Of a DNA stretch of 64,000 nucleotides, positions 1-32,673 are shown piece after piece. This DNA comes from Lachnospiraceae bacterium (lineage in GTDB: Bacteria > Bacillota > Clostridia > Lachnospirales > Lachnospiraceae). Location of the stretch: positions 13,988-77,987 of the forward strand of contig JAILQX010000017.1 in the NCBI GenBank assembly GCA_024698705.1, read 5' to 3'. The translations under genes were made by a program, and so were the position numbers. Within the stretch, counting starts at the first letter, position 1. Each line of letters starts with the position of its first letter. The notes under the pieces were generated by a model that saw nothing but the letters and a program-made list of their open reading frames with translations, had not been told where the DNA came from and did not search any database.

Positions 1-2001
1 GTCCGTCCCGGAATTTAAAAGTGCTTTTTCTATACTTTCTTTATCGGGTACCTTCGGATCCTCGGCATGAAAGTCCCAGAGTTCGCTCACATTCCCTATA
101 GCGATGTCAAAGCATCCCGATGTGGAATCGGCGTATTCCCTTCCAAGGCATATGACACTGTACATATCCTCGGAAATATCCGTCATATAGGCTCCGTCTT
201 CGTCCGTATTCAGGTTGCCCTGCCTGCTGTTTATCTTATATAACTCGCTTTCCGGATCGGTCCTTGAAAATATCCTCTCATACTCAGCGCATTTTTCGAG
301 TGCATCGTCCAATATGATACCGTTCGTGTCATCAAACACCCTAATATTTACATAAGTATCAAAATAAAACCCCGAGACGCTGTCCTTTTTTTCATCCGTT
401 TCAGCGTTTGTGTCACTCTTCATCTTTCTTGCGGCAAGATATTTGTAGAAGAACTTGTCCTCCGGCTCATAGGTGTAATAATTGTAGAGCATATCCTCCG
501 ACAGCTCGGCATCCCTGTTTGAGTAGAACTCAAGCGAACCGTAGACATCCTGAAGATGCGATTCTGTCTTGTAGACCTTTATATTGTCCTTTATCTCCAT
601 GAGCGGATACCACATGCCTATCACAAGTACCACAGCCGTTACCGTCGCCCTGACAACGAGCTTACGGTCGACATCTTCCGACTTCACCCGGCGATCGTAA
701 GTATTGAACAGCTCGATCACAAAGATCATTATCACAAACAATCCCGGGATCGACGTTCCCATTACCCAGTCATTGCACAGTCCCATACGGAATACGGGTA
801 TAACGGTAAGTACCGCAACTGTCGTGTAATATATGATGTCCTTCTTATGCTCCTTAAAAGTACAGATCGCATATATCCCGAACATCATAAAGTCAAATAT
901 AAATATGATCCACACTGTCCCAAGATCCATATCCTGCACATGAAACTTCATGTATCTCGGCTTCTCTACCTGCATATAGCCGAGGAAATACGTGATCAGT
1001 ACGGTTCCCAGAGTGGCCATCGTGCATATATTTGAAAGTGAAAATATCTTAAATAAGCTCTTTTTCTTATCTTCCGCCTTGATGAAACTCTGAACGGCAA
1101 CGGCTATACCGAGGCAAGCGAAGCATACGATCGAAAATGTACCGTACAGAAGTGCCGGTGCAAATAAAAGCACATAATGTTCGGTATGTTTTTTGTGCTC
1201 CATAAAGAGCATCACGATCAGCCAGATGACTATCACCTGTGGATACACCCAGCGTATCATGACGATATTACTTCGGTACTGAAGCATAAAATCTTCTACG
1301 AGGAGCCAGTGATGTGCCCCGAGTGAGAACATGTCGACCGAATAGAGGTCATTGCACACGAGCTGTGCAAGCGGCAACGCACCGCAGAATAACAGCATGA
1401 TGAACAGTGTCCTGAACTGTTTTTTTACATTATCGCTTTTTGTGATACGCACGAGATTCAGATAAACAAGATACAGCCCTGTAACGCCCCATACGGCCAT
1501 TACGGCGCTTGCGACCTTAAAGCCAATGTCTGTCTCCATCCCGCCGTTTCTTGCCATTACAAGACCGCGTACGGCTTTACCGATCAGTGCCGGAAGCATG
1601 TACTGCCCCAAATAATAGGTCAGCATGCTTTTTTCGTATCTCTCATAATATACGGGCCAGCTGCGGTTCACGAGATCACGCAGCACTGCATTATGTTTGT
1701 GCCAGTCTCCCGCCTGCTGGAATATACCTCCGAAACCTATGAGTATACAGATCACGATCAGGATAAGGGCGGAAAGCGCCATCATCCACGGACCGATCTT
1801 CACAGGCTCGGTGTTCTCAAGTTCGCCGGTATAATCCTCATACATTTTTTTCATGAAAAAAGCACAAAAAGATAACGTTATGATCCATACCGCTATCTTA
1901 GTGTGACCGATCATGAATATGCAGACCGGCAGATATATGTATATAAAGGTTATCAACAATAAAGCTTTGCTGTTGCTTTTCATTCCGCGACTCCAGCTCA
2001 T
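1..2001 (-). CDS. Polytopic membrane protein (GT-C-like, inferred) fused in frame to a C-terminal ApbE-family FAD:protein FMN transferase domain; runs off the window edge
   Basis: Absent from the ORF track because it has no stop in the window. I read the frame by hand from ATG 2001 (alternative ATG 1983) to base 1 and found no stop. The N-terminal ~530 aa have many hydrophobic segments (GGIFQQAGDWHKHNAVLRDL...MLTYYLGQY). The last ~125 aa read SGFYFDTYVNIRVF...YERIFSRTDPESELYKIN...STSGCFDIAIGNVSELWDF, typical of the ApbE N-terminus. Confidence 0.8.
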   Translation of the reverse strand, partial: MSWSRGMKSNSKALLLITFIYIYLPVCIFMIGHTKIAVWIITLSFCAFFMKKMYEDYTGELENTEPVKIGPWMMALSALILIVICILIGFGGIFQQAGDWHKHNAVLRDLVNRSWPVYYERYEKSMLTYYLGQYMLPALIGKAVRGLVMARNGGMETDIGFKVASAVMAVWGVTGLYLVYLNLVRITKSDNVKKQFRTLFIMLLFCGALPLAQLVCNDLYSVDMFSLGAHHWLLVEDFMLQYRSNIVMIRWVYPQVIVIWLIVMLFMEHKKHTEHYVLLFAPALLYGTFSIVCFACLGIAVAVQSFIKAEDKKKSLFKIFSLSNICTMATLGTVLITYFLGYMQVEKPRYMKFHVQDMDLGTVWIIFIFDFMMFGIYAICTFKEHKKDIIYYTTVAVLTVIPVFRMGLCNDWVMGTSIPGLFVIMIFVIELFNTYDRRVKSEDVDRKLVVRATVTAVVLVIGMWYPLMEIKDNIKVYKTESHLQDVYGSLEFYSNRDAELSEDMLYNYYTYEPEDKFFYKYLAARKMKSDTNAETDEKKDSVSGFYFDTYVNIRVFDDTNGIILDDALEKCAEYERIFSRTDPESELYKINSRQGNLNTDEDGAYMTDISEDMYSVICLGREYADSTSGCFDIAIGNVSELWDFHAEDPKVPDKESIEKALLNSGTD

Positions 2002-4146
2002 TCAGTCAATTTTTATGATCTCGATGATCTGACCGTTATCACCGACCGCCAGGAAAATGATCTCTCCCAGTGTTTCAAGCACACCGTTTTCGACCGTGCC
2101 GTACTTTTCGTATTCACGCGGTCCGATGTAAATATAGTCAACATTATATTTGTCAAGCAGTGACTTTGCCCTCATGCTGTCGGTCCCCGTATAAATATCC
2201 TTAATGTCACCCGCTCTGAGTTCGTAGAAATTATAGGAATTGTTCCACAGCCATTCGTGGGTCCTCCAGCCCATAACGGTCGGAAATCCCGTTAGCACCG
2301 ATACATAGCAGCTGTTAGAATAGCTGTCGCCGTCTGCCTGGAGAACAACGGGCTGCAATTCACCTGTATCCGCGACCTGATCTGTCAGTGAATCTATGGC
2401 ACCCATCTCCGTTTGGTTTTCAAGCCTTATGCTGTAGGCCGCATCCATGCTGAGATAGCCTTTATTGCCGCCGTCATTTAACCACATACGGGTCGCCATA
2501 AAGATATAACCGGACAGCATTGCGATACAGATCAGCAATCCTGTCGCAGTCCGCCGGTATTTTTTCCTGTAATACATCTCCTCCTCGGCCTTTGCCTGAG
2601 TGTGGAAAAAATTGACGATATAACCCGAGCAGAGGCCGAACATGATAAATGCTTCAAACGTAAGTTTGAACATCGTATTGGCCCTCGGGAATCCGTCTAT
2701 ATAGATATCCTTGACAAATATAAACTCCGGCATGAATATAAGCCCGGTCGCACACAGCAAGAGCAGCAGTACGTAAAGAGCTGACAGCGTCAGTTTCTTA
2801 AGTCTTATGATGAGTGCTGTGAACAATGCCGTCATAATAAGGTCAAAGCCCCAGAGAATCAGGAACTGATACCATCTCGTATGCGTATAAGCAATACCCA
2901 GTCCCTCGGTCATCGTCTTGAAGTTCAGTGAGAACGGCAGAGCGACCGCCAATGTGATTATCACGACAAACGCGCCTATTGCCGCAGTATTGCCTATGAT
3001 CTTCTTGCATCTGACAGGTTTCGTGTATCCGGCCGTGTTGTCCTTACCGAAATGTCTGATCAGTCCAAACAATATGATGCTGCCCGAAACCACGAAGTAG
3101 ATCATGAAATCCCAGCTGTTGGCCATAAAGCTTATGCCGATCAGAAAGCCCAGACACGCTATTTTAAGATCGAGCATGTTCTTCAGCCAGCTGTCACTCA
3201 AACTGTCGGAATCCTGCAGCCAGGCCCACAGAATGGCCAGGATGCATATGACTGCCATCATATTTACCACATGTGCATGAAGGTCACCTACTATGAACGA
3301 ATACGCCGGGAATTCATGGATCGTATGATCATTGGCGACTTCGGGAATGTAGCCTATGTATCTGGTCGAATTTGCAAACCAGTAGTTGGGCGCCGGACCT
3401 TCGAGCTGAAGCATTTCCCATACGGCGGGAACCAGATATTTAAAAACTATAAAATGAAAACTGCCCGCACACACGACTGCACATGAGGAAATGATACCTG
3501 CGATCCTGCTCTTTGAAATATTTCTTACAAGTGCAAAGATGCCGACAAGCGCAAAAGCCATCACGGCATAAAGTCCGAAGGTATAGGCATAACCCATGTC
3601 TATAAATGCCAGTTTACCGGCAAATGTAAATATATATTGGCCGAAATAATAATAATTGATGCTTTTCCCCGCGCACCAAATATCGGCAGCCGGCATATAT
3701 TCAGTCCTTGCGATGGACATCATAAATCCAAGATCCATGAAGCGTTCGGTACCGTAAGAAGGCACCCTGTACGCATAGATAATGCATACGAGCACAAAAA
3801 GGAAAGCAAATACAAGGCCTTCGATGAGCATATATCTGAAAGAAGCCCTGAGTTCCTCAAAAAACGAGTTGTCGCCTTTTTTATATTTCCAAAAAACATA
3901 TGAATAATTAAGAACGGTTATCAGAATGACGCAGAACCATGAAGTGCCCACTCCAAACTTCAGAATGTGGCAGGAAGAAAAAAACCACATCAGATATCCG
4001 GACAGATACAGACCGATGATCCCCGAAAATATAAATCCCCTGTTCTCAAACTTATGAAAAAGTTTGAAACAAAGCGGCAATACCGAAATGCCGAGGATCA
4101 GAAGTATGCATAAGAATTTGAATAATTGCAGAAGATCATTCCACAT
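2002..4146 (-). CDS. DUF2298 / YYY-domain membrane protein (predicted GT-C fold glycosyltransferase)
   Basis: 714 aa with many TM segments; motifs ERFMDLGF, INYYYFGQY, EFPAYSFIVGDLHAH, RANTMFK; soluble C-terminal domain. Confidence 0.8.
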   Translation of the reverse strand: MWNDLLQLFKFLCILLILGISVLPLCFKLFHKFENRGFIFSGIIGLYLSGYLMWFFSSCHILKFGVGTSWFCVILITVLNYSYVFWKYKKGDNSFFEELRASFRYMLIEGLVFAFLFVLVCIIYAYRVPSYGTERFMDLGFMMSIARTEYMPAADIWCAGKSINYYYFGQYIFTFAGKLAFIDMGYAYTFGLYAVMAFALVGIFALVRNISKSRIAGIISSCAVVCAGSFHFIVFKYLVPAVWEMLQLEGPAPNYWFANSTRYIGYIPEVANDHTIHEFPAYSFIVGDLHAHVVNMMAVICILAILWAWLQDSDSLSDSWLKNMLDLKIACLGFLIGISFMANSWDFMIYFVVSGSIILFGLIRHFGKDNTAGYTKPVRCKKIIGNTAAIGAFVVIITLAVALPFSLNFKTMTEGLGIAYTHTRWYQFLILWGFDLIMTALFTALIIRLKKLTLSALYVLLLLLCATGLIFMPEFIFVKDIYIDGFPRANTMFKLTFEAFIMFGLCSGYIVNFFHTQAKAEEEMYYRKKYRRTATGLLICIAMLSGYIFMATRMWLNDGGNKGYLSMDAAYSIRLENQTEMGAIDSLTDQVADTGELQPVVLQADGDSYSNSCYVSVLTGFPTVMGWRTHEWLWNNSYNFYELRAGDIKDIYTGTDSMRAKSLLDKYNVDYIYIGPREYEKYGTVENGVLETLGEIIFLAVGDNGQIIEIIKID

Positions 4147-4167: not shown

Positions 4168-4647
4168 TCAAAACAGCCCTACAAACCAGGCAACTATACC
4201 GGTACCGCATCCCATGATCACACCGGCGAGCACAACTCCCGCAAGTACGGCGATGACACTTTTCTTAAAGTCCATATCGAGTATGCTGGCAGCAAGTGTG
4301 CCTGTCCATGCTCCCGTACCCGGCAGCGGTATACCGACAAATAAAAACAGTGCGACATACAATCCGCGTCCTGCCTTGCTCTGCAGCTTTTCCCCGCCCT
4401 TTTCACCTTTTACCATACAAAAATCACAGAACCTGCTGAAAAGAGGTATGTTCTTCTTCTGTCCCCATGCAAGAACCTTTCTCGCAAACAGATAGATTAC
4501 GGGAACCGGAAGCATATTTCCGATTATACAGACTATATAAGCGTTTAGTACGGGTATCCCGGCCGTCAGAGCATAAGGTATTGCAACCCTGAGTTCAATG
4601 AGCGGAACCATGGATATCAAAAATGAAATAAGATATTTTTTAAACAT
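4168..4647 (-). CDS. Small multi-drug export family membrane protein (COG2426-like)
   Basis: SMVPLIELRVAIP and LFVGIPLPGTGAWTGTLAASIL motifs. Confidence 0.85.
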   Translation of the reverse strand: MFKKYLISFLISMVPLIELRVAIPYALTAGIPVLNAYIVCIIGNMLPVPVIYLFARKVLAWGQKKNIPLFSRFCDFCMVKGEKGGEKLQSKAGRGLYVALFLFVGIPLPGTGAWTGTLAASILDMDFKKSVIAVLAGVVLAGVIMGCGTGIVAWFVGLF

Positions 4648-4660
4648 ATATAAACCTTTA

Positions 4661-5119
4661 CTACAGAAATCTGACTATTATGACCGCTACTATTACACCG
4701 GTGAGTGCACCTATGAGAACCTGCAACGGTGTATGTCCGACAAGTTCCTTTAATCTTTCTTCCGGTGAGATATTCTTACCCATGTTCTGGAATATCTCGA
4801 TCATATCATTGAGGATCTTGCCCTGACGTCCTGTTTCCATACGCACATTCATGGCATCATACATGACTATGATCGCAAAGCAGAGCGCTATCGCAAATTC
4901 AATACTGCCTCCGCCGTATATCATGCCTGTTGCGGTCGCAAGGCCACATACCATGGATGAATGGCAGCTCGGCATACCTCCGGCACCGACAAAACGCTCT
5001 AGCTCAAATTTCTTGTTGATTATGGCATAAATAATGGTTTTGGCAACCTGTGCAACAGCCCATCCGCCGAGCCCTGCCAAAAAGGCCTTATTGGCAAACA
5101 GACTTCTCAAAAAATCCAT
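4661..5119 (-). CDS. Divergent PAP2 family protein (DUF212)
   Basis: GGMPSCHS, IVMYDAMNVR, LKELVGHTPLQV motifs. Confidence 0.85.
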   Translation of the reverse strand: MDFLRSLFANKAFLAGLGGWAVAQVAKTIIYAIINKKFELERFVGAGGMPSCHSSMVCGLATATGMIYGGGSIEFAIALCFAIIVMYDAMNVRMETGRQGKILNDMIEIFQNMGKNISPEERLKELVGHTPLQVLIGALTGVIVAVIIVRFL

Positions 5120-5287: not shown

Positions 5288-6169
5288 TTAACCTTCGATC
5301 TCATATCCGAGAACGAGTCCGCCTCTTTCGGCGTAGAAAGTACAGAGTCCTGTCGTTTCGGCAATGGTTATGTCGGCATTCGGAAACTCCTTTAAAATAA
5401 GGTTCTTTAAGTTTTCGGCATCCTCAACTGCAAGACAGTGATCTATGATGAACCTTCCGCCCTTGTATCCGGCTTCCTTCATGGCATCAACCAGAGTACG
5501 GAGTGTCTTGTCATCGCCCCTTACCTTATTCTTGGGCTGAAGTACACCTGTCTCCGAAAAATCCCCGACGATGTGAATCTTAAGTGTCTCTGCGATCTTG
5601 GCAACAGTTTTGTTTATACGTCCATTATTTGCAAGATTCTTAAGTGATTTTAAAGCAAATCCTATCTTTGTATTTCTGTGGCAATACTCATCCAGTTCCT
5701 TACAGAAGCTGTCAAACTCTTCGGCACTCTTGAAGTTCAAAGCTTCCGGATCCGCTTTTTCCTTATTTGCTATATATTCGATACAGAGTTTTTCAACCGG
5801 TCCTATGGCCGTTGTATCAAGTACATATACTCTTCTGCCTTCGTGTTCTTCCATATACTGCTCCGCAGCGACCCTGCAGGCATTGTAGGAACCCGATAAG
5901 ATGCTTGCGAGTGTGATACCTATGACATATTCGTGCTCACCGAAGCTTTCAAGCCATTCATCAATACCCGGGCAGGCCGAATGCGATGCAAGCTTTGTTC
6001 CTTCCAGATAGCTGACCATGTCATTGATATCAAGATCCGCATCATCAATGAACTCTTTCTCATCGGTACAGATCTTAAGAGGTACAACGCAGCCGTCCAG
6101 TTTAACTCCGTTAACCTCATCCAATCTTCTGTAGTTTGATGCAGAATCGATCGTAATGTGTAAATTCAT
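5288..6169 (-). CDS. DegV family fatty-acid-binding protein
   Basis: ITIDSAS start, SHSACP, LSGSYN, SLKNLANNGRI, GGLVLGY; 293 aa. Confidence 0.85.
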   Translation of the reverse strand: MNLHITIDSASNYRRLDEVNGVKLDGCVVPLKICTDEKEFIDDADLDINDMVSYLEGTKLASHSACPGIDEWLESFGEHEYVIGITLASILSGSYNACRVAAEQYMEEHEGRRVYVLDTTAIGPVEKLCIEYIANKEKADPEALNFKSAEEFDSFCKELDEYCHRNTKIGFALKSLKNLANNGRINKTVAKIAETLKIHIVGDFSETGVLQPKNKVRGDDKTLRTLVDAMKEAGYKGGRFIIDHCLAVEDAENLKNLILKEFPNADITIAETTGLCTFYAERGGLVLGYEIEG

Positions 6170-6326
6170 AGTATTTATCTCCCTATCATAAGTTTTTCAA
6201 AAACCGATGTCATATATATTTATATCAGTATTATAATGGCAAGTCAAGTATCTTACAATTTATAAAAAAAAATTAAGATAAAAATCGTATTTTGAGATAT
6301 AATATCATGTGTGAGGGGAATCAGCC

Positions 6327-6848
6327 ATGGATAAATTTGAAAATACAAGAGCGATCGATGATATCAAGAGATTTCATCTTCCCAAATACAACGAGATACC
6401 GGATGTCGGCCTTTTTCTTGAACAGACGACCAAATATGTAAGCGGCTATCTGGAAAACCTTGAAGGAATAACGATAACATCGTCCATGATAAGCAATTAT
6501 GTCAAGAAGAAGCTTATCGACAATCCTATCAAAAAGCAGTATTACCGCGATCAGATCGTCTACATCATATTTATCGCAATCGCAAAATCAGTGCTCTCTC
6601 TCGAAGAGATCGAGCACCTGATCAATGTACGCGGTAAACAATATGATTGTAAAGAGCTGTATGAATATTTCTGCAATGAATTCGAAAGCAATCTGTATTC
6701 GGTATTCGGGATCACACCCGAAGCCAAAGAAGAACCGTATCCCCAGAACGAGGACCGCTTTCTTCTTCACAATACAATCATAACAGCTTCACACAAGATA
6801 TATCTTGATAAGATATTTGCACTGAGGATCCACAATGAAAAAGAGTGA
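6327..6848 (+). CDS. DUF1836 family protein
   Basis: LPKYNEIPDVGLFLEQ, ITSSMISNYVKKKLI; divergent from degV; GAGGGG SD. Confidence 0.85.
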   Translation: MDKFENTRAIDDIKRFHLPKYNEIPDVGLFLEQTTKYVSGYLENLEGITITSSMISNYVKKKLIDNPIKKQYYRDQIVYIIFIAIAKSVLSLEEIEHLINVRGKQYDCKELYEYFCNEFESNLYSVFGITPEAKEEPYPQNEDRFLLHNTIITASHKIYLDKIFALRIHNEKE

Positions 6849-11791: not shown

Positions 11792-14728
11792 CTACTGCAC
11801 ATTATATTTGCTGAGGATGCGGGCATCCGGCTGGTAGCTGCCGAGTTCCTCGGCTGCACGTTTTATGATCTCATCATAACTGAGTACAGGTGAAGAGAAC
11901 ATGGCGGACGTAGTGATAAATGTCAGCTTGTCTTCCTTCCTGTTGTAGCCCTTTACAAAATAGATCTCAGCGATCTCCTCCATGTCAGGATTGAGGAGCA
12001 GGCTCGTATTGGCTTTTATCAGATAGTTGCCGTTTGCAGGCATGCTGATGACATCCCAGATGCGGCCGTAATCTCCGTATGAAGTCTTGACAAGATCACA
12101 TGTACCGGCATCATAGATCTGCATTGTGTTCGAATTGTAGACTATGAACAGGTACTTACCGTCGCTCGAATACATGATACTGCTTACAACACCGTAATCA
12201 CCCATGATCTCCTTATAAGGCTTTGTATCACCTTTGTTATATATGTATATCTTCTTGGATTTTGAATCACAGACTGCCGCATGACTGCCGTCTGCCGAGC
12301 AGGCCACATCATCACTGATGAGCCTGAAACCGGTGATATCGATCTTGATACCGGCATCTTCACCGGTCCTTGTATTCTTAAATTCCACGTATTCATTGCC
12401 GTCATCAGTTGTAAAATATCCGAGATAATTGCCGTCTCCGTATACCTCGAGATCATACAGATAAATATCATCACCAAATTCTATAGTCTTACTGTGCTTC
12501 TTTTCCGCAATATCGTAATATTCCAGAGCTTCCCGTCCGAATAACACAAAACCGTCATCGCCGTCACCCACATAGTTGAAGCGATAGTTTGGCGTCTTAA
12601 ACTCGTCTATCAATGAGGCATCCAATGTATCATAAAGTGATACCGTGAATTCATCATCTCCCGTTTCGGTCAGGATGACTCCGTATTTCAGGTTGTCAGA
12701 TGTGTAATCATAGTTGGCAACATTGGCTGTAAATTCCACATTGGGGCTCTTCAGATATTCATACAACGTGACATAATTCCTGCCCTGAGTTGCAAGGAAA
12801 AGCTTTCCCTTAGCCATACAGCTGTCTTTGACCTTGCCGTTGATCTCATATTCATACAGCGAACTGTCAAGGACCAGTCCGTTTTCAAGGACATATCTGT
12901 TGATAGTACCGTCCTTCGTGATAAGGACTTCAAATTTACCGCCGCTGAGCGGGAATGAATCCACTACCGCCGAGCTCAGACCGCTGTTATAATAGACCGA
13001 TCCGTCATAAGGGCTCAGAGTAAAAGGTCCGTCTGAATCCCTCGCGTAGAGGAAATCCTCTTCTTCGCCTTCGTAATAACGCATGTCGTATAAGAATGAT
13101 GCGATCAGTTGATTATTTGTAAATGCTATCTTTCCCTCATCCATGTTTATTCCGATGATCACACACTGATACTCTATGTAATTGCCGGTCGAGGTCGCAC
13201 TTACATAAGCCATATTGTCATGCATGCACATGGTTGTATAATAATCGCCTTCCGGTCCGAGGTATACATTTTGGATCATGTCACCACTGTCGGTATCATA
13301 TACCACGAAATAATTCTTTTCATCTTCCATCAGACCAACACTTACAATGATACCGAACTTACTGCCGTCATCGGAAAATGATGCCGTTATCATATTGGCG
13401 TAATTTTCTTCCGCAAAGTCACCTTCCCACGAGATCATCGGCTTTGTGTATTCAGCCTTTGCCGTAGCCGTATCGATCAGTATGATGTCATCGTTTACAA
13501 CCATGCATTTCGAATGATCACTGTTAAAAAAGGCCTTACCGACATGATCGGAAATATATGTTTTATTTCCGGACGGTATGTCATATATGTATTCACCTTC
13601 TTCGTCGAAAGTTAAGATGGCATCATCATTGAGAAACTTGATGTAGTCCATGTTATTAAACAGATCACCGACACTGAGACCTGCGACTTCTTCTCCGCTC
13701 TCCACATCCCAGATGACCAGATTATAACTCTCATTGAGTGCCGCGATATGTACTCCCCCGGGTGATACGGTGATCCCGGTAACTCCCGAACCCGCATCAA
13801 AATTTGCCATGGGCATGTACAGATCACCTGACGAATAGCAGCCGAGTGCCTTGGTCATGGCCTTCTGTGCTTCTGCGGCGTAAGGTATGTTATCATTGGC
13901 CGGATCTTTGGGCATCGAGTAATAAAGAGCGTAGAGCGCTTCCATCCTTCGTCCCTCGCTCATGATCGTATCCGAAGCATCGGCCATGCTTATCTCGTAT
14001 TTTTTCAGTGATTCTTTGTATTGCTGCTCTATCTCACCGGCCTGACGGCTGATCTCAACGTTCTGTGCCGCTATTTCCTCAGACTGCTTTTTGATCTTGT
14101 GTGCAGTTATAGCACTGTATGTTCCGAATGCAAGTACAACAGCCATGACAGCCGAGCCTATGGCCAGTATCCTGTGCATCCTCTGTTCACGATGCCTCTG
14201 CTTGAGGTCGTCAAAATTAAGACCGAACATGGGGGCTAAAAGCCTGAGGCCCTCGTCTTTCATCCTCTTTTTGATCTCGTCCCGGTTTGCTCCCCTGAAA
14301 TCCGCTGCAAGCGGTTCACAGAGAATACCCTCCTCATCCTTTAAAAGCTCTTCGGGAAATGAATCGGCCGGCTCGCCTTCAGCCAGCACAACAAATACAT
14401 GCTCCCTGCCATGCATTTTCATGAAAGTCTCTATCTCCTTGCGGCACCACAGAGACTCCTTGAGCCTTGGCGTACAGATGACTATGAGATTACTTGAATT
14501 CTTCAGTGCCTCAGTGATCGGATCGCCGAGATTGGCTACAAGCGGCAGTTCCTCCTGATCCCTGAATACCCTGCTTATCTTTGCGGGCAGGTCGGGATGC
14601 GCCTTTCTGACAGAGCGCGGCAGTTTGAAACTCTCCAGATACTTATGAAGTGTCTTCGCAACAAACATATCCAGTTCGCAATGTCTGTAGCTTATAAATG
14701 CGTCATAATGTATGTTTTCCAGATTCAT
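11792..14728 (-). CDS. TIR-domain protein: N-terminal TIR, one TM helix, coiled coil, C-terminal WD40/beta-propeller
   Basis: YDAFISYRH, VFRDQEEL, SLWCRKEI (catalytic Glu position); TM RILAIGSAVMAVVLAFGTYSAI; propeller-like repeats such as ITVSPGGVHIAA...LVIWDV and IMYSSDGKYL...MQIYDA. Confidence 0.85.
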   Translation of the reverse strand: MNLENIHYDAFISYRHCELDMFVAKTLHKYLESFKLPRSVRKAHPDLPAKISRVFRDQEELPLVANLGDPITEALKNSSNLIVICTPRLKESLWCRKEIETFMKMHGREHVFVVLAEGEPADSFPEELLKDEEGILCEPLAADFRGANRDEIKKRMKDEGLRLLAPMFGLNFDDLKQRHREQRMHRILAIGSAVMAVVLAFGTYSAITAHKIKKQSEEIAAQNVEISRQAGEIEQQYKESLKKYEISMADASDTIMSEGRRMEALYALYYSMPKDPANDNIPYAAEAQKAMTKALGCYSSGDLYMPMANFDAGSGVTGITVSPGGVHIAALNESYNLVIWDVESGEEVAGLSVGDLFNNMDYIKFLNDDAILTFDEEGEYIYDIPSGNKTYISDHVGKAFFNSDHSKCMVVNDDIILIDTATAKAEYTKPMISWEGDFAEENYANMITASFSDDGSKFGIIVSVGLMEDEKNYFVVYDTDSGDMIQNVYLGPEGDYYTTMCMHDNMAYVSATSTGNYIEYQCVIIGINMDEGKIAFTNNQLIASFLYDMRYYEGEEEDFLYARDSDGPFTLSPYDGSVYYNSGLSSAVVDSFPLSGGKFEVLITKDGTINRYVLENGLVLDSSLYEYEINGKVKDSCMAKGKLFLATQGRNYVTLYEYLKSPNVEFTANVANYDYTSDNLKYGVILTETGDDEFTVSLYDTLDASLIDEFKTPNYRFNYVGDGDDGFVLFGREALEYYDIAEKKHSKTIEFGDDIYLYDLEVYGDGNYLGYFTTDDGNEYVEFKNTRTGEDAGIKIDITGFRLISDDVACSADGSHAAVCDSKSKKIYIYNKGDTKPYKEIMGDYGVVSSIMYSSDGKYLFIVYNSNTMQIYDAGTCDLVKTSYGDYGRIWDVISMPANGNYLIKANTSLLLNPDMEEIAEIYFVKGYNRKEDKLTFITTSAMFSSPVLSYDEIIKRAAEELGSYQPDARILSKYNVQ

Positions 14729-14739
14729 TTAGATCCCCC

Positions 14740-16245
14740 TTAAGCCTCTTCATACGTTTTAGCAAATATCTTTCCTTCGATTATGTATATATCATCATTG
14801 TCATCTATCCTGGCCGCCATATAATCATGTTGGCGACCCAGCATATAATTCTGGTTATCCCATGAAGTAAATACCTTTACGGTCTTATCCAGTTCTTTTG
14901 CAAGTATGTAGTTTGTCTGTGTCGAACGGCACGGTCTGATGTAATCCCTCAGTTCTTTCATCTCTCCGGTGATCCTGTTCCTGATCGTAGGTGTGTAGGA
15001 TACATCGCATTCGTACGGCTCATCCACTATCATGTATGTGCTGTCGAACTTTTCTTTTCTGATCGGATATACTTCTCCGACTATTCCGACCATTATGTAT
15101 GTGTTTTCATCTATAACGGTGTTGATATCGCCTTCCAATGTCCTTACCGTTATGAGTGTGTCCTTGGGCCAGAATTCCGAAGGATCCACCATACCGATGA
15201 TGATAGGCTTCTTTACGTATTTTTTGAATTCACTCGGATCGATCTTGTATCGTCCCGCATATATCACTTCACTGCTTGCGAAATACCTGTTCATCGCATT
15301 TCCTATATATGCATCGATATCGAGTTCCTTATAGACACTCTCCATCCTGTTTTTGGCGATAAATCCGCCTGCCTTGTCAATGTGACCGCCTCCGTTGCCT
15401 ATATCGGCCGTCAGGAATTCTATCAGCTCATCCGCGTGCACTTCCTTTACACAGCTTCTGACAGAGAATTTATAACCGCCCGATTCCTCGTTAAATACCA
15501 CGCATATGTCTATCACATCCACCTGAAGCAGGAAATCCGCAATAAGTCCGAGGATATTGGGATCGCAGGGCTGAGAATGGATGATCGCGTATCTTCTGTC
15601 GGGATTGTAGACATATCTGATCAGTGCCACTCCCGCTATTTCCAGTTCTCTTAAGGAAATATTGGAGTTGACGAGCAATGATATCACCGACTGGTCATAT
15701 GCAAGAGAATCCTGCATATCGCGATCCAGAGGGTGTTTCATTTCCGCAAAATTACTTGTATCCGTCATCAGCCCATAATACAGAGCCGTTGCCAGTTTTG
15801 AGTTCATATTGACATTAAAGCCCTCGTATCCGAGCAGCTGCCATACAAGTGTCGAGCAGCTTCCCAGTTCGGAACGTATCTCCGTCATGTCCATGGCCGC
15901 CAACGGTGAAGGTGATGACTGATGATGGTCGATTATTGCCAGGCTATCGTATTCAAAGGGGGTCACATTGCTTTCTCCCTCCTGGCAGTCCACGGTTATC
16001 AGGAGGCCGTCGATATGCATCCTCTTGTCATCTATATAAGTTACAGGTATGGAGAATTCTTTTAGCATCAGTTTAAGATTGGATTTCTGGATCTCATTTC
16101 TTCCGCCGTAGATTATCCTGACGTCCTTTCCCTGATCTCTGAAATACAGGTAAAGTCCGTATGCTGACGCCAATGCATCCGCATCCGGATTATCATGGCA
16201 CTGAAGTGTTATCTTGTCGTATTTTTTCAGATCTGAAAGTCTCAT
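14740..16245 (-). CDS. DHH/DHHA1 family phosphoesterase with a duplicated C-terminal accessory domain
   Basis: HDNPDADA, TVDCQ, IIDHH, GLMTDT, GGGHIDKAGG; the C-terminal ~160 aa contain two similar repeats. Confidence 0.88.
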   Translation of the reverse strand: MRLSDLKKYDKITLQCHDNPDADALASAYGLYLYFRDQGKDVRIIYGGRNEIQKSNLKLMLKEFSIPVTYIDDKRMHIDGLLITVDCQEGESNVTPFEYDSLAIIDHHQSSPSPLAAMDMTEIRSELGSCSTLVWQLLGYEGFNVNMNSKLATALYYGLMTDTSNFAEMKHPLDRDMQDSLAYDQSVISLLVNSNISLRELEIAGVALIRYVYNPDRRYAIIHSQPCDPNILGLIADFLLQVDVIDICVVFNEESGGYKFSVRSCVKEVHADELIEFLTADIGNGGGHIDKAGGFIAKNRMESVYKELDIDAYIGNAMNRYFASSEVIYAGRYKIDPSEFKKYVKKPIIIGMVDPSEFWPKDTLITVRTLEGDINTVIDENTYIMVGIVGEVYPIRKEKFDSTYMIVDEPYECDVSYTPTIRNRITGEMKELRDYIRPCRSTQTNYILAKELDKTVKVFTSWDNQNYMLGRQHDYMAARIDDNDDIYIIEGKIFAKTYEEA

Positions 16246-16357
16246 ATATTTCCCCCATCTTTAGAACATCGGCCGATTTTCGCATAATATTTTATTGTAT
16301 TATACTATAAAAACTCAGGTAATACATTATTTATGATCAAATCTTAAGAGTTAACGA

Positions 16358-16386
16358 TTGTATTGGACGGGGCAAAATAATATAAT
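16358..16386 (+). promoter_or_regulatory. Putative sigma-70 promoter for the aquaporin gene
   Basis: TTGTAT-17 bp-TATAAT. Confidence 0.5.
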
Positions 16387-16472
16387 AATAGATGTGGGTA
16401 TATTATTATCAGGTCAGTTCTCTGACCATGTATACTGCGCCGTATCGGCGTTTACAAAAGGAGGTAGAGTAA

Positions 16473-17156
16473 ATGAAAAAGTACATTGCTGAATTTATCG
16501 GCACATGTGTATTGGTTGTTATGGGTTGTGGTACGGCAATGCTGGTAGGCTGTGATGCCGCAAACGGAAGCGGCTATCTGCTGACTGCACTTGCATTTGG
16601 TCTGACCATCGTAGGTATGGCTTACTGTGTCGGCAATATTTCCGGCTGTCATATCAATCCCGCTGTTTCACTCGGTGTATTCATGAGCGGCGGTATGGAC
16701 GGCAAGGATTTCTGCTGTTACGTAGTATCGCAGATCCTCGGTGCCATCGCAGGCACGGGCATTCTCGCAGCCATATTTAATCTCGGTGCTGTTCCCGACA
16801 TGACAGGCGGCTACGGCTCCAACGGACTTGCCGGAGTAAGCGGAAGCGCTGTCGCAGGTCTTCTGGTTGAGATCGTTCTTACATTCATCTTCGTTATGAC
16901 CATTCTCGGCGTTACTTCAAAGAAAGCCGGCCATGGTTCTTTCGGAGGACTGATCATCGGTCTCACACTTACACTTGTACATATCCTCGGCATCGGCCTC
17001 ACAGGTACTAGCGTTAACCCCGCAAGAAGTATAGGTCCCGCTCTTTTCGCAGGCGGTGACGCACTTTCAAGCCTTTGGGTATTTATCGTAGGCCCTCTTG
17101 CAGGCGCAGCTATCGCAGCACTTGTCTACAAGGCACTCGAAGCAGAGAAGAAATGA
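16473..17156 (+). CDS. aqpZ: MIP family channel (aquaporin Z-like)
   Basis: Two NPA motifs (GCHINPAVS, TSVNPARS); AAAGGAGG SD. Confidence 0.9.
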   Translation: MKKYIAEFIGTCVLVVMGCGTAMLVGCDAANGSGYLLTALAFGLTIVGMAYCVGNISGCHINPAVSLGVFMSGGMDGKDFCCYVVSQILGAIAGTGILAAIFNLGAVPDMTGGYGSNGLAGVSGSAVAGLLVEIVLTFIFVMTILGVTSKKAGHGSFGGLIIGLTLTLVHILGIGLTGTSVNPARSIGPALFAGGDALSSLWVFIVGPLAGAAIAALVYKALEAEKK

Positions 17157-24868: not shown

Positions 24869-25834
24869 TCATCTCCAACTTCTGTTTCTTACTGCAATAG
24901 AAATGTATGTATCAATTAAACACATTCTCAATGCTTTACCCACTCTAGTACGATGTCCAACCAGTTGCCATAATAATCTGTACATTTCTCTTAACTCATT
25001 GGTCATCAGTTTTTTGTTTTCTTTATCTGGCAATTGATTCATTGCGCGAATCAAACGATGTCTTACTATTAATTCGAAATACTCGCAGGCATAAACCAAA
25101 TTATCCGGAGCATTATTATTTACAAAAAATTTTTTTAATCCTCTAGCAACATCTATTCCTGACCATTGCCCTGGAAAAAAAGCTCTTTTACTCTGAGATA
25201 ATGGATTTTGCACCCAATGATATAATGGCGTATCATCAAAATATAGTTTTCTCACCTTATACATCAATCTAATCATCATTGAATAGTCTTCATATTGACT
25301 ACCCACTGGGAAAACAACATCCTCTATTACTGATCGACTTATCAGCTTGTTCCACACCGCCCCAGAAGCAGTTTTGTTTTGAAAAAGAATATTATATATA
25401 AAAACTTCCGACTCATATATACCCGAATGCATTTCAACAAATCTATTCTCCTCGCTTCCGTCTATATAAGTCATATAATTAGCGCAACAAGACAGAAGTA
25501 CATCATTATCGATAGCATTCTTTAAGAGTCTCTCATACATTGTAGGTTCTATATAATCGTCATCATCTACAAATCCTATATAATCCCCTGTGGAGATTTC
25601 TATGCCAAAATTTCTCGCTTCAGCCTGTCCCCCGTTTGCCTTGTGTAACACTACTATCCGTTTATCCTCTTGTTTTAATTCGTCACAAATATGAGGAGAT
25701 TCATCTGGGCTTCCATCATCAACAAGTATTATTTCAAGGTTTTCATACGTTTGTTTCATAATCGACTGAACACACTTACGTAACGTTTTTTCACCTCGAA
25801 ATACGGGAACTATCACGCTAATTTTACATTTCAT
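24869..25834 (-). CDS. GT2 glycosyltransferase
   Basis: ISVIVPVF, LVDDGS, ARNFG, FVDDDD. Confidence 0.9.
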   Translation of the reverse strand: MKCKISVIVPVFRGEKTLRKCVQSIMKQTYENLEIILVDDGSPDESPHICDELKQEDKRIVVLHKANGGQAEARNFGIEISTGDYIGFVDDDDYIEPTMYERLLKNAIDNDVLLSCCANYMTYIDGSEENRFVEMHSGIYESEVFIYNILFQNKTASGAVWNKLISRSVIEDVVFPVGSQYEDYSMMIRLMYKVRKLYFDDTPLYHWVQNPLSQSKRAFFPGQWSGIDVARGLKKFFVNNNAPDNLVYACEYFELIVRHRLIRAMNQLPDKENKKLMTNELREMYRLLWQLVGHRTRVGKALRMCLIDTYISIAVRNRSWR

Positions 25835-25880
25835 TTAAAAACCGCCTAAACAATCTAATAATCTAATAAAGCAGGAAACA

Positions 25881-27011
25881 TCAGTCAATCAAAATCTTCT
25901 TCATTATCGAAAAGGATTTTTCTCGCTCAGATAACAATACTTGTTCAACTTTATCAAAACCTATCTTCCTATCACATAAGTCATATTCATCAAATGACAA
26001 GAGAATTCTATCTTCTGTACCCGTCATCATTAAAATGCTTTCTATTCTAGTGGCATATTTCTTCGGTTTAACCACAATAAACGGCACTTTAAAGTTTAAA
26101 GAAAATGCAGTCATATGAAAGGAATCCGTTATTATACAGGTGGCATCTGAAATCAAACGAAGAAATGTTTCTATTGTAACATTATTCAAGCATCTTCCTA
26201 TTTTTTTTCGATCCCCTCTTCGCATACCAATACGTATTATTTGCCAGCCTTTTAGTATCGCTAATTCTTTAGTATACTTTTCAAATAATGGATTATCATT
26301 AAGCTGGTATACTAGAAGATATTTGCCCTTAATGGTTTGCTTCTCTGCAGCAAGAGTTCTCCATTCAACGTCAGTTAACATTAATGTTGGATCCAAAACC
26401 TGATGGGATTTGATTCCAATAGAATCCAACAACTCCTTCGCAGAGTTTTCTCGAACCGTTATTCCGGAATATTTACACAACATTTTCTGAAACAAAGAAA
26501 TTTCTTTTGTGTCAAGGTGCTCCTTTCCAATGCTTGAAGAATAAGATATTCTTTTTGATTCTTCTGGCAAGAAATCAAGAAAGAAAACTCTGTCCACTCC
26601 TCCGTTCCAATCACTATTCCATATTTGATCACTTCCCGAAATATACACATCTGCCACAGGATAGTTTGATAAAAGTTCCTCGAATGAATAATATCTGGCC
26701 TGAGTCAGATTCACATTATGCGTAATGAACTCCCAAAAGATGTTTTTTTTATCTACAAACATCACCCTAATAAACCATTTAGAAAATGATCCTATTGGAT
26801 TGCGATCATCATTTATCAACTTGATTCTTGAAGTAATTCTATTCCTTCTTAAAATTAGTTTCGCAATTGCATCTGATGTGTTGCTCTCTCTCCAATAATC
26901 AATGAATTCAACATCATATCCAAGTTTATTAAGTACTTTCATAGTTGCATATGTCTGTAACACCGACCCATAGTTTCTAACTGTATGTAAAGTAATCACA
27001 TCCGCTTTCAC
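25881..27011 (-). CDS. Polysaccharide pyruvyl transferase family protein
   Basis: NYGSVLQTYA, SGSDQIWN, SYSSSIG, VRE, DPT, TDSFH; GTG start. Confidence 0.9.
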   Translation of the reverse strand: MKADVITLHTVRNYGSVLQTYATMKVLNKLGYDVEFIDYWRESNTSDAIAKLILRRNRITSRIKLINDDRNPIGSFSKWFIRVMFVDKKNIFWEFITHNVNLTQARYYSFEELLSNYPVADVYISGSDQIWNSDWNGGVDRVFFLDFLPEESKRISYSSSIGKEHLDTKEISLFQKMLCKYSGITVRENSAKELLDSIGIKSHQVLDPTLMLTDVEWRTLAAEKQTIKGKYLLVYQLNDNPLFEKYTKELAILKGWQIIRIGMRRGDRKKIGRCLNNVTIETFLRLISDATCIITDSFHMTAFSLNFKVPFIVVKPKKYATRIESILMMTGTEDRILLSFDEYDLCDRKIGFDKVEQVLLSEREKSFSIMKKILID

Positions 27012-27144
27012 AATTTAATCTCCATATCATTCATCCTATATTATTTACCAATTGAATCGGCGGCAGCGTAAAGCCGCATAGAAACTTGACATTTTTATAC
27101 TGTTAAAAAAACATAGGGTATAATTTTAGGAATTATATTCATGG

Positions 27145-27993
27145 TCAGTCTCCCAAAGTATACTTTTTAAAACCATCTATCTTCCCTTTTAACGAATATA
27201 ATGAACGCTTATACTTCTTATTACCGATACTGTACAATAATATTCCGCCCATACTTTTTATGAGCGATTTTATATATAACCAGCCCCACAGGATCTTTCT
27301 GTTTTTTAAATAATATTTTTTATATAATGCCCCAAATCCAACACTGTAATTATATGTACGAGTATAATCAATTATATCTGTGTTACTTTTATGATAAACA
27401 ATTAACGCAGGATTATATATAACTCTCTTTTTTTCTATAAGTGTTTTAATTACTATATCAGTTTCTTCCCCCGCTCCATATTGGGCTCCAATACCAAAAT
27501 CCATATCAAATCCATCAGATAATATACTTTTGTGTATTATCATTGCCGCACTCATACAATAATCAAATATTGAATTCCATTTGATATTGATCGTGTTTGC
27601 CTCTATCATGTGCGGAAGCAGATACTCTCCTGTTATCGGATCTTTTATTCTTCCCGCAAGTATTCCAACGTCGTTTGTATTTTCAATTGTTTCATTAGCT
27701 TCTTTTAAGTAGTTATGATCATAAACTGCATCATCATCAATCAGAGCAATAAAATCACCTTCGCAAAATTGTAATCCAAGATTTCTGGATCTTGATAACC
27801 CTTTTTCTGATACATGATAATATTTTATACATTCACTATTCTGATAATCATAATTGATATTATCACTCTGATCTATAATTACTATTTCATATTTATCATA
27901 TGACTGCTCAAGTAAAGAATTAACACATCTTCTCAACAATTCCTCGCGATTCAAAGTACATAATAAAAATGAAAATTTTATATTTCTACCCAT
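27145..27993 (-). CDS. GT2 glycosyltransferase
   Basis: LLCTLNR, IIDQS, GLSRSRNLG, LIDDDA, GAGEETD. Confidence 0.88.
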   Translation of the reverse strand: MGRNIKFSFLLCTLNREELLRRCVNSLLEQSYDKYEIVIIDQSDNINYDYQNSECIKYYHVSEKGLSRSRNLGLQFCEGDFIALIDDDAVYDHNYLKEANETIENTNDVGILAGRIKDPITGEYLLPHMIEANTINIKWNSIFDYCMSAAMIIHKSILSDGFDMDFGIGAQYGAGEETDIVIKTLIEKKRVIYNPALIVYHKSNTDIIDYTRTYNYSVGFGALYKKYYLKNRKILWGWLYIKSLIKSMGGILLYSIGNKKYKRSLYSLKGKIDGFKKYTLGD

Positions 27994-28005
27994 ATGTCAC
28001 CCAAT

Positions 28006-29094
28006 TTATTTCCAAAATGGTATATACGGAATATATGCCTGCATGTTTTTGAAATATGGTATCATAAGCACTCCGCATATCATAACCTTTAATATCTTAC
28101 CGTTGGCAGATCCGTTTTTACTCTGTCTAATAAAGAATTCCGGCAGATATAATATTGCTACCTGTGAAAAATAAAGGGATAATCTTGCCGGATAATTCAT
28201 ATTTCGTAAAACAAATGCTGTAACGATATAAACACATATTATCGCTATTTTTTGATATGCATCTTTTTTCCCTTTATCATCAATATATGATTTGTTTTTT
28301 TCCAAATATATGCAATCAAATACTATTATTAAGATCAAAAGCAATGCCATATAAAAGCTATATGTTTTTCCATCATTCTTGGTTAGATTATCCACTCTGA
28401 GATAGCCAACATACGCCGGGAAAAATCTGATAAATAATAATGTAATTGATTTATAAGCGCCCTCTATCAAAGCAATAATGACAGAAAAAATAATCGTTTT
28501 TTTTAAATCCGGTTTGATCAGCATAACAATATAAAATAAAATGGCAACGATCGAAATCTGATGAACCCCTACGGCAATTAAGAAAAATACTATACTGGTC
28601 TTTATTCTTTGACTTTTTAGCATACTATATGCCACCAAAACGATAGCCATAGCCACACACTGTCTTGTGGCATTAAATGCAAAAAGGTATAATCCCAGAG
28701 TAATATATATATACCACGACGTTTTTATATCTGTTGACTCCTTATAGATCACATATCCATAACAAGTCACAATAATAATGGCATTAAGTATGATTATTGC
28801 CTGAGCTTGCGGAAAGAAAAAGAATAACGCTTTACTATAAATGGCATAAATAGGGGCTTGTTTAAGGAACATTTCAAACCCGGCACGTGAATTAACATAT
28901 AATCTCATTATACCCAAAGTATCCGTACCGACGCTTTTCCCTCTGAATCCCATTAGTATTCCTAATGCAACAGACGCAAGTATAACTTCTATTTTTCGTA
29001 TTTTTAAAATATTGTTTGTTCTGTTTTTTAATAAATAATCAATTAAACCAGTTGTAGATAAAACAATTACTACAAGGCCTATATATATACCCAT
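28006..29094 (-). CDS. wzy: Wzy polymerase, EpsG family
   Basis: About 10 TM; GFRGKSVGTDT, FNATRQCVA, VHQIS, RLSLYF. Confidence 0.8.
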   Translation of the reverse strand: MGIYIGLVVIVLSTTGLIDYLLKNRTNNILKIRKIEVILASVALGILMGFRGKSVGTDTLGIMRLYVNSRAGFEMFLKQAPIYAIYSKALFFFFPQAQAIIILNAIIIVTCYGYVIYKESTDIKTSWYIYITLGLYLFAFNATRQCVAMAIVLVAYSMLKSQRIKTSIVFFLIAVGVHQISIVAILFYIVMLIKPDLKKTIIFSVIIALIEGAYKSITLLFIRFFPAYVGYLRVDNLTKNDGKTYSFYMALLLILIIVFDCIYLEKNKSYIDDKGKKDAYQKIAIICVYIVTAFVLRNMNYPARLSLYFSQVAILYLPEFFIRQSKNGSANGKILKVMICGVLMIPYFKNMQAYIPYIPFWK

Positions 29095-29101
29095 AACAAA
29101 T

Positions 29102-30148: not shown

Positions 30149-30155
30149 ATGCGCC

Positions 30156-31304: not shown

Positions 31305-31316
31305 AGTAGTTCCCTT

Positions 31317-32660: not shown

Positions 32661-32673
32661 TCTTTACGCCCTC

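Follow-up and report, generated by a model that had tools for sequence, protein, structure and literature searches.

The DNA analyzed here, referred to as the window, is a stretch of 64,000 nt from a Lachnospiraceae bacterium (assembly GCA_024698705.1, contig JAILQX010000017.1, positions 13,988 to 77,987 of the forward strand). At its left edge, on the minus strand, lies a gene in which a polytopic membrane domain and an ApbE flavinyl transferase domain share one reading frame. The membrane domain belongs to an unnamed family and was given the working name X (aa 1-520). Translation of the window yielded an uninterrupted minus-strand frame from position 2001 to position 1 (667 codons), as stated in an earlier sequence-only reading of this DNA, and the peptide strings quoted there were found in it. 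The complete product of the gene, recovered by the homolog search, is a protein of 841 aa and roughly 95 kDa (P0001). Its residue numbering is used throughout, with X at 1-520, the linker at 521-536 and ApbE at 537-841. The locus comprises the following features:

1..375, minus strand: the N-terminal 125 residues of the ApbE domain (aa 537-661 of 841; PF02424), the remainder lying past the left edge of the window

376..423, minus strand: the hydrophilic 16-aa linker MKSDTNAETDEKKDSV (aa 521-536), delimited by comparison with split relatives

424..1983, minus strand: membrane domain X (aa 1-520), with 13 predicted transmembrane (TM) helices, a predicted N-in/C-out topology and no family name

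1984..2001, minus strand: six codons (MSWSRG) that are in frame and separate the upstream stop codon from the probable start codon; they hold a GGAG sequence

2002..4146, minus strand: DUF2298/chlor_Arch_YYY gene for a polytopic membrane protein of 714 aa (PF10060, E 3.8e-85; TIGR03662, E 3e-130)

4168..4647, minus strand: gene for a small membrane protein of the Sm_multidrug_ex family (PF06695; Pfam and synteny), part of the conserved upstream block

4661..5119, minus strand: gene for a DUF212/divergent PAP2 membrane phosphatase-like protein (Pfam and synteny), part of the same block

The gene probably starts at ATG 1983 (MKSNSK...) and not at ATG 2001, where the sequence-only reading had placed the start. 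ATG 1983 is preferred because a GGAG Shine-Dalgarno sequence is located at 1994-1991, seven nt 5′ of it, because it agrees with the N-termini of all homologs (MK(S/T)NSK) and because the database copy P0001 begins there as well. ATG 2001 has no Shine-Dalgarno sequence and directly abuts the TGA of the upstream gene. The stop codon of the DUF2298 gene thus adjoins the X reading frame, and across the loci compared DUF2298 was the most widely conserved neighbor of X.

The C-terminal part was identified as ApbE by several approaches. PF02424 matched residues 547-663 of the window translation with 69.5 bits (cut-off 25.6), covering profile positions 1-105 of 266, and was also annotated on the 841-aa protein (precomputed). 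The domain is cut only by the end of the window: residues 537-841 of P0001 cover chain residues 27-316 of FmnB. The NCBIfam ApbE equivalog model matched P0001 with an E-value of 3.5e-36, which is nevertheless under its equivalog cut-off, and a phmmer comparison with Listeria monocytogenes FmnB (7esa) gave an E-value of 4e-49. The AlphaFold2 (AF2) model of the full-length protein had a mean pLDDT of 94.7, with disorder (pLDDT <50) at residues 525-529 only. Ranks 1 to 39 of the Foldseek search were all ApbE/Ftp/FmnB structures (target TM-scores 0.77-0.86), the best match being that to FmnB of L. monocytogenes (7esb), with 33% identity, an E-value of 4e-21 and a target TM-score of 0.86.

The conserved catalytic center of these enzymes was described as Asp301-Ser257-His273 together with Arg262 in FmnB, and as D285/S241/H257 in Vibrio cholerae (2025 review, PMC12052999). 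Residues D800, S756, H772 and R761 of P0001 align without gaps to D301, S257, H273 and R262 of FmnB. S756, R761 and D800 are invariant in 12 of 12 fused proteins and H772 in 11 of 12, with a gap in the partial 774-aa protein P0006. The mean pairwise identity among the fused proteins was 52% for ApbE and 54% for X, which indicates that both halves are under similar constraint. The assignment of the C-terminal part to ApbE was therefore borne out, and the domain is intact with its catalytic His and Asp. The gene encodes one polypeptide, which consists of the 13-helix domain X, a 16-residue hydrophilic tether and a complete ApbE/FmnB-type FAD:protein FMN transferase (FAD, flavin adenine dinucleotide; FMN, flavin mononucleotide). 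The fused ApbE most likely still flavinylates extracytosolic FMN-binding proteins. The activity of the family is a Mg2+-dependent transfer of FMN from FAD to the Thr or Ser of a D-x-x-[ST]-G-A-[ST] motif in the target. No other enzyme is known to attach covalent FMN to redox proteins outside the cytosol, among them Rnf, Nqr and the proteins of extracellular electron transfer.

Neither a hydrophobic stretch nor a Cys was found between residues 470 and 537, so that the protein has no lipobox or signal peptide between the last helix of X and the ApbE sequence SGFYFDTY, in agreement with the earlier description of the junction. Both features are typical of ApbE proteins but not shared by all of them. 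Logan contigs of four gut-metagenome runs contain sequence of the window, and in three independent runs a single contig spans the junction (376-423) with zero substitutions or indels (X1 1-642, X2 310-1919, X3 1-706). The linker contains an A7 run at 386-392, which is identical in the three spanning contigs. In addition, X and ApbE were found together in twelve 90%-identity protein clusters (774-871 aa, 45-54% identical to the query), and both parts are in one frame in nine fetched loci (L001-L004, L008-L011 and L080), which include identical or overlapping contigs. A joint 252->371 in the read layout was considered as a deletion and rejected: the second contig matches only 21-23 nt on each side and was read as a related strain.

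These data practically exclude an assembly artefact. It might be suspected, from the homopolymer in the linker, from the metagenomic source of the sequence and from a related contig (L069) with a premature stop in the ApbE part, that sequencing or assembly went wrong, by an indel in the A7 run or by a chimeric join, or that two separate genes have recently decayed into a pseudogene. This explanation is exceedingly improbable, however, in view of the agreement of three independent assemblies across the junction, the twelve diverged clusters with the same architecture and differing linker sequences, the absence of a signal-peptide remnant in every frame, and the retention of the catalytic residues and overall identity. 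Two of the checks proposed with the sequence-only reading, for sequence support over the junction (here from assembled contigs) and for the same fusion in related genomes, thus came out in favor of a genuine fusion. The contig L069 (6-1401) comes from the metagenome-assembled genome (MAG) RUG13505, and its fused gene shares the junction of L001; after about 85 codons, however, the ApbE part meets a stop and then continues in a different frame, through either a frameshift error or the decay of this copy.

It was also considered whether ApbE is made separately from an internal start at Met521 (ATG 423-421), which would result in a signal-less cytoplasmic ApbE. The in-frame ATG lies exactly at the boundary between X and the linker, and cytoplasmic ApbEs do exist: the second ApbE of Klebsiella pneumoniae has no signal and serves a cytoplasmic fumarate reductase (PMC12052999). 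Nevertheless, no usable Shine-Dalgarno sequence was found, with AGAAAG directly abutting the ATG, the Met is missing at that position in other fused orthologs, and the nearest ApbE relatives are lipoproteins. A separate cytoplasmic ApbE is therefore considered very improbable.

The closest unfused relatives show how the fusion could have originated. In the split relatives P0017/L005, P0011/L086, P0014/L089 and L012, the gene for X overlaps a separate apbE on the same strand by 32-35 nt; P0017 is from Lachnospiraceae UBA1712 (L005-7, L013). The gene order in these relatives is DUF212, Sm_multidrug_ex, DUF2298, X, apbE, a NusG_II gene and a PF07456 gene, followed by alaS in several loci. Their ApbE proteins begin with a lipoprotein signal and a lipobox (...VIFTGC, ...VFMTGC, ...FCVAC or ...LGMSGC). 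With a slash at the lipobox, the signals read ...LIISSVFICMSLVIFTGC/GKSAARATVSGLYFDT, ...IMLIIMASVFMTGC/TLSAGNGEDEPQSSINGIYFDT, ...LFCMILCMLFCVAC/SSPEETKANISVSGIYFDT and ...ILGIILGMSGC/SRVS....

In every fused protein the tail of X is kept (...FY.Y....KI[DE]) and is followed by 10-16 hydrophilic residues and then by [SN]G.[YF]FDT. The linker sits where the unfused relatives have the stop codon of X, the signal peptide of ApbE and the lipobox Cys, and the 10-16-aa segment occupies the position of the tether behind this Cys. In L086 the X stop codon and the Cys codon delimit, both included, a stretch of 55 nt (3n+1), which is exactly the shift from the frame of X to that of apbE. One small deletion is therefore sufficient to turn the split pair into a fusion, with the loss of the stop codon, the signal peptide and the lipidated Cys.

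The ancestral state would accordingly have been two overlapping co-directional genes, X followed by a lipoprotein apbE, as still seen in the closest relatives. A single deletion of about 55 nt (3n+1), reaching from the X stop codon to the lipobox Cys codon, would have brought the mature ApbE into the reading frame of X, following its outward-facing tail. The earlier distinction between a clean domain fusion and the loss of a stop codon was a false choice: a deletion of stop codon and signal peptide yields the fusion from overlapping split genes.

The distribution of fused and split forms was analyzed in a tree of the X domain, for which neighbor-joining (NJ) only was used (500 bootstraps). Twelve fused proteins were found in a clade of 20 leaves, interleaved with eight unfused ones. 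The fused proteins P0007, P0008, P0012 and P0013 group with the split P0016-P0021 (99% bootstrap), and the fused P0009 and P0010 with the split P0014 (100%). P0001 pairs with P0003 at 79%, and P0002 groups with P0004-P0006 and P0015 at 100%. The linker sequences differ between the fused clades. Regaining a signal peptide after a fusion is implausible, and the economical reading of the tree, with which the differing linkers agree, therefore suggests at least three independent fusions. The X-only protein P0015 (L090 276-1844) has its place within a fused clade, and its last residues are a portion of the fusion linker (...KIGDGEP compared to ...KIGDSKPGK...). No apbE lies downstream of it; unrelated DUF6472 and tRNA methyltransferase genes were found instead. 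It looks like a truncated derivative of the fusion that secondarily lost ApbE.

Among 1.84 billion protein representatives clustered at 50% identity, a search gave only one match that covered both halves (P0002); all the others consisted of X alone (about 500 aa) or of ApbE alone (about 330 aa). The fusion is known from a few rumen and gut Lachnospiraceae, with GCA_016290615.1 and GCA_016295205.1 among the MAGs that carry it, and is a narrowly distributed architecture.

For the topology of X, the AF2 model of this domain alone was used (pLDDT 96.4, pTM 0.95), which has 13 long helices. A hand-made positive-inside count was carried out by applying the helix boundaries of the model to the short loops of 104 homologs. 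The 'in' loops contained 15.4 Lys and Arg per 69.5 residues (0.22 per residue), compared to 5.0 per 49.5 residues (0.10 per residue) in the 'out' loops. X is thus predicted to have its N-terminus inside and its C-terminus outside. The invariant residues D93, K96, N98, D103, Y123, Y124, N404, D405, N501, Y502 and Y505 are on the predicted outer face. D93, K96, N98 and D103 are located in a long loop after TM3, N404 and D405 before TM12, and N501, Y502 and Y505 in the C-terminal tail, all of which are assigned outside. Because of the predicted C-out topology of X and the lipoprotein, hence extracytoplasmic, ancestry of the ApbE half, the fused ApbE is inferred to lie outside the membrane, where it would be held by X instead of a lipid.

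The neighborhood of apbE was examined for a functional tie between both halves. In the split relatives and in the fused locus L008, apbE is followed by the NusG_II and PF07456 genes. PF07456 corresponds to EetB, the ECF-S substrate-binding subunit of the FAD exporter needed for flavinylation by FmnB (ECF, energy-coupling factor), and the EetB gene is colocalized with apbE in 2,169 genomes and, among Clostridia, with Rnf in 572 (PMC9973259). As apbE travels with the NusG_II gene and eetB, ApbE belongs to a flavin-trafficking block. The FAD for the fused ApbE would then be delivered by an EetB-type ECF export system, encoded beside apbE in the relatives. In L086 the genes for a fused double ABC ATPase and for CbiQ/EcfT (ECF energizing components; 193-2759) are located directly upstream of the DUF212 row on the same strand.

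In 12 loci with 39-45% identity (L014, L015, L017, L019-L026 and L066), apbE is still a neighbor of X, but the two genes are on opposite strands and converge. Where X falls below 38% identity, no apbE occurs up to 10 kb away, and the gene for a family 2 glycosyltransferase (GT2) and/or DUF2298 is kept. In six of the convergent loci (L017, L019, L020, L022, L025 and L026), about 45 codons resembling the C-terminal third of NusG_II (query aa 82-127) were found just upstream of the minus-strand apbE; this stretch could be a small gene or an N-terminal extension of ApbE.

Functional coupling was weighed on this basis. Here X and ApbE would act in one pathway or physical complex, and the fusion would be a Rosetta-stone signal; X may dock ApbE by its substrate or by the FAD exporter, or glycosylation and flavinylation may hit the same surface protein. 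The 32-35-nt overlap in the split relatives implies translational coupling, the fusion seemingly arose several times and was kept with both halves equally conserved, and in L086 the ECF ATPase and T-component genes upstream and apbE, NusG_II and eetB downstream enclose the row DUF212-SmMDR-DUF2298-X on one strand. Coupling is nonetheless considered unlikely. In the 12 next-closest loci apbE is convergent with X, the X genes below 38% identity are without apbE within 10 kb yet accompanied by GT2 and/or DUF2298, and the fused architecture was a single hit among the 1.84 billion representatives. Moreover, the flavinylation motif is absent from both X and DUF2298, and pTM was only 0.73 for the full-length protein, compared to 0.95 for the X domain, the model showing no confident fixed docking of the domains.

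A more specific form, in which X is an unrecognized part of the extracytosolic flavinylation machinery, namely a platform holding ApbE by the EetB exporter or by a glycosylated envelope substrate, covalently in fused genomes and as a binding partner in split ones, is regarded as more doubtful still. If it were true, the X/DUF2298/GT2 module and flavinylation would act on the same surface molecule, and the repeated fusions would be the trace of a complex.

A swap of the membrane anchor, for which the adjacency and overlap of the genes and a matching topology would have prepared the ground, is favored over these possibilities because apbE is convergent with X or absent in the farther X loci, because GT2 and DUF2298 are kept there and because X has no flavinylation motif. 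Of the two interpretations offered by the sequence-only reading, coupled glycosylation and flavinylation is not supported, with apbE adjoining X co-directionally in one Lachnospiraceae sub-lineage and otherwise on the opposite strand or missing; a mere anchoring of ApbE by the membrane domain is the better fit, and the anchor swap is the better supported of the two. The fusion would reflect co-expression and compatible topology, not necessarily a shared chemistry.

The nature of X itself was approached by structure and gene context. All Foldseek matches of the X model with a probability >0.9 were GT-C glycosyltransferase folds, namely ALG12 (9s6t; E 3e-3, TM-scores 0.38/0.41), PglB (5ogl/6gxc) and AftA (8if8), with probabilities of 0.94-1.0. 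ArnT (5f15) reached 0.54 and transporters stayed below 0.3. A GT2 of about 250 aa was identified in 28 more distant X loci, including an Elusimicrobia MAG. In most of them it abuts X, in about seven it is 1.5-4.5 kb away, and one is a weak match of 28% identity. The best NCBIfam matches of this GT2 were ArnC, PgfS, PpgS, AglJ and dolichyl-phosphate hexose transferase, all below the cut-off. In L027 (2280-7397) the genes for X, GT2 and DUF2298 form an overlapping operon, in L042 (10001-14458) X is followed by GT2, and L038 (5205-13820) is another locus with this pairing. DUF2298 adjoins X in most loci.

No GT2 adjoins X in the lineage of the window. The nearest GT2-type gene in the window is at 32698-34692 on the minus strand and encodes a homolog of the 696-aa GT2 and Bac_transf protein of L001 (47% identity, tblastn). 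Weaker GT2-like matches at 31371-32534 and 25481-25825 suggest a polysaccharide-synthesis cluster (25481-34692, minus strand) about 30 kb from the fusion. The relative of X in Yersinia rohdei has GGDEF, YfiR and P-type ATPase neighbors, which are uninformative. Cultured carriers of X include Lacrimispora saccharolytica An861, Lachnospiraceae bacterium 28-4 and [Eubacterium] cellulosolvens LD2006; L. saccharolytica is a relative with split genes.

Pairings of a GT-C enzyme with a polyprenyl-phosphate GT2 are known from ArnC/ArnT, GtrB/GtrC, CsbB/YfhO and Streptococcus PgfS/PgfM1/PgfM2. X is most likely a GT-C-like transferase in an envelope glycosylation module with DUF2298 and GT2, in parallel to these systems, and would act with DUF2298 and the polyprenyl-phosphate-synthase-like GT2 on a cell-envelope glycan or protein. 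The resemblance to GT-C enzymes proposed earlier thus stands as the best available reading by virtue of the Foldseek matches and the GT2 neighbors, although a GT-C profile match is missing and the TM-scores are weak.

Alternatively, X could be a Wzy/O-antigen-type polymerase or ligase, a flippase or a transporter, in which case it would still serve as an anchor for ApbE. A sequence-level link to any GT-C family is absent, the fold TM-scores are just 0.35-0.41, and the long conserved outer loop comes after TM3, whereas classical GT-C enzymes have it after TM1. Against this stand the GT-C folds among all Foldseek matches >0.9 with transporters below 0.3, the clustering of invariant acidic and polar residues on the outer face, and the conserved neighborhood of X and a GT2 similar to polyprenyl-phosphate sugar synthases, all of which make a function other than glycosyl transfer unlikely.

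X was also compared to DUF2298 as a possible paralog, but the profile comparison supported no more than a shared motif: hhalign gave a probability of 0.9-4%, relaxed settings included, and only a short YYxGQY segment aligned. The local invariant motif common to both is E.SMLTYYLGQY..P.L.GK in X and GE.INYYYFGQY......K in DUF2298. The chlor_Arch_YYY family takes its name from the 'YYY' part. A search of PDB sequences with DUF2298 resulted in chance matches only.

Taken together, the preferred reading is that of a fusion born from a deletion, in which the lipid anchor of ApbE was exchanged for X, ApbE is extracytoplasmic and X has a GT-C-like function of its own; its probability is estimated at about 0.7. 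Several results weigh against it. The topology is derived from the model, from a positive-inside count made by hand and from the lipoprotein nature of the ancestral ApbE. For X, neither Pfam nor NCBIfam gave a family, nor did Pfam for its nine remote relatives (from Chloroflexota, Planctomycetota, Yersinia rohdei and Elusimicrobia), and the X family profile had no match among PDB sequences at E-values up to 10. The matches to GT-C folds are weak (E 3e-3 to 4e-2, TM-scores 0.35-0.41), and the backbone of the NJ tree has support of 44-54% at some nodes. The flavinylation target motif D-x-x-[ST]-G-A-[ST] was not found in any open reading frame (ORF) of at least 80 aa in the 64-kb window. Finally, the X/apbE overlap and the repeated, retained fusion with equally conserved halves would also be expected under functional coupling.

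No description of the architecture was known to the author of the sequence-only reading, and none was found in the flavinylation literature searched. The ApbE review covers lipoprotein, cytosolic and fumarate-reductase-fused ApbEs only (PMC12052999), and term searches of the large flavinylation survey and of its 2024 follow-up gave no mention of fusions. The survey recognizes extracytosolic systems from the presence of a signal peptide or of a lipidation site. The fused ApbE has neither mark and would therefore be missed, being either dropped or read as cytosolic. For DUF2298, two incidental mentions were found in the full-text literature.

If the anchor reading is true, the fusion is not a new mechanism and the biology of ApbE itself is unchanged. 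It would represent a different membrane anchoring for ApbE, which apparently evolved repeatedly via one small deletion. Furthermore, it indicates an outward-facing C-terminus for the uncharacterized X family and draws notice to an X/GT2/DUF2298 module that is widespread in Clostridia, resembles lipid-linked-sugar glycosylation and has no literature.

Some differences in gene content were observed around the conserved row. In the window, a DegV gene (minus strand) and a DUF1836 gene (plus strand) are inserted between DUF212 and VanW (5288-6848); in L001, L003 and L005, DUF212 and VanW are adjacent or parted by a small zinc-finger gene only. In L003, from a MAG with the fused gene, an HTH_3 and Fic/RhuM pair is inserted downstream of alaS (15421-16546), which is absent from L001. 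Farther into the window, an ORF of 978 aa (11792-14728, minus strand) combines an N-terminal TIR domain (TIR_2, ThsB_TIR) with a C-terminal WD40/beta-propeller and is a candidate anti-phage defense protein. It is adjoined by a DHH/DHHA1 phosphoesterase gene (14740-16245).

Enzymes with a GT-C fold have 8-13 helices and an extracytoplasmic active site. Compared to known GT-C/GT2 systems, X has 13 helices, a PglB-like N-in/C-out topology as predicted, a long outer loop with invariant acidic residues, and fold matches that are weak. Distant X genes adjoin a small GT2 with best matches to ArnC, PgfS and PpgS, and a gene for a second large polytopic protein, DUF2298. X differs from these systems in the missing GT-C profile match, in TM-scores of 0.35-0.41 and in the position of the loop after TM3. 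DUF2298 (PF10060, TIGR03662) is, like X, large, polytopic and uncharacterized, has the YYxGQY...GK motif and is syntenic with X across many Clostridia, whereas the profile-profile comparison of both was not significant (hhalign <4%).

With FmnB and other lipoprotein ApbE/Ftp proteins (PF02424), the fused protein shares the fold, the Ser-His-Asp triad and the FmnB-type Arg. An eetB-type FAD-export gene is likewise adjacent in its closest relatives, and an extracytoplasmic location is presumed. The difference lies in the attachment: the fused protein has no signal peptide or lipobox, and its ApbE is the C-terminal domain of a 13-helix protein instead of being held by an N-terminal lipid. The trypanosomatid fumarate reductase with an N-terminal ApbE (PMC12052999) is similar in that ApbE is one domain of a larger polypeptide. 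In that enzyme, however, which is located within a compartment, ApbE is joined to the soluble protein that it modifies, whereas here the partner is a polytopic membrane protein without a flavinylation motif and the ApbE domain is predicted to lie outside the cell membrane.

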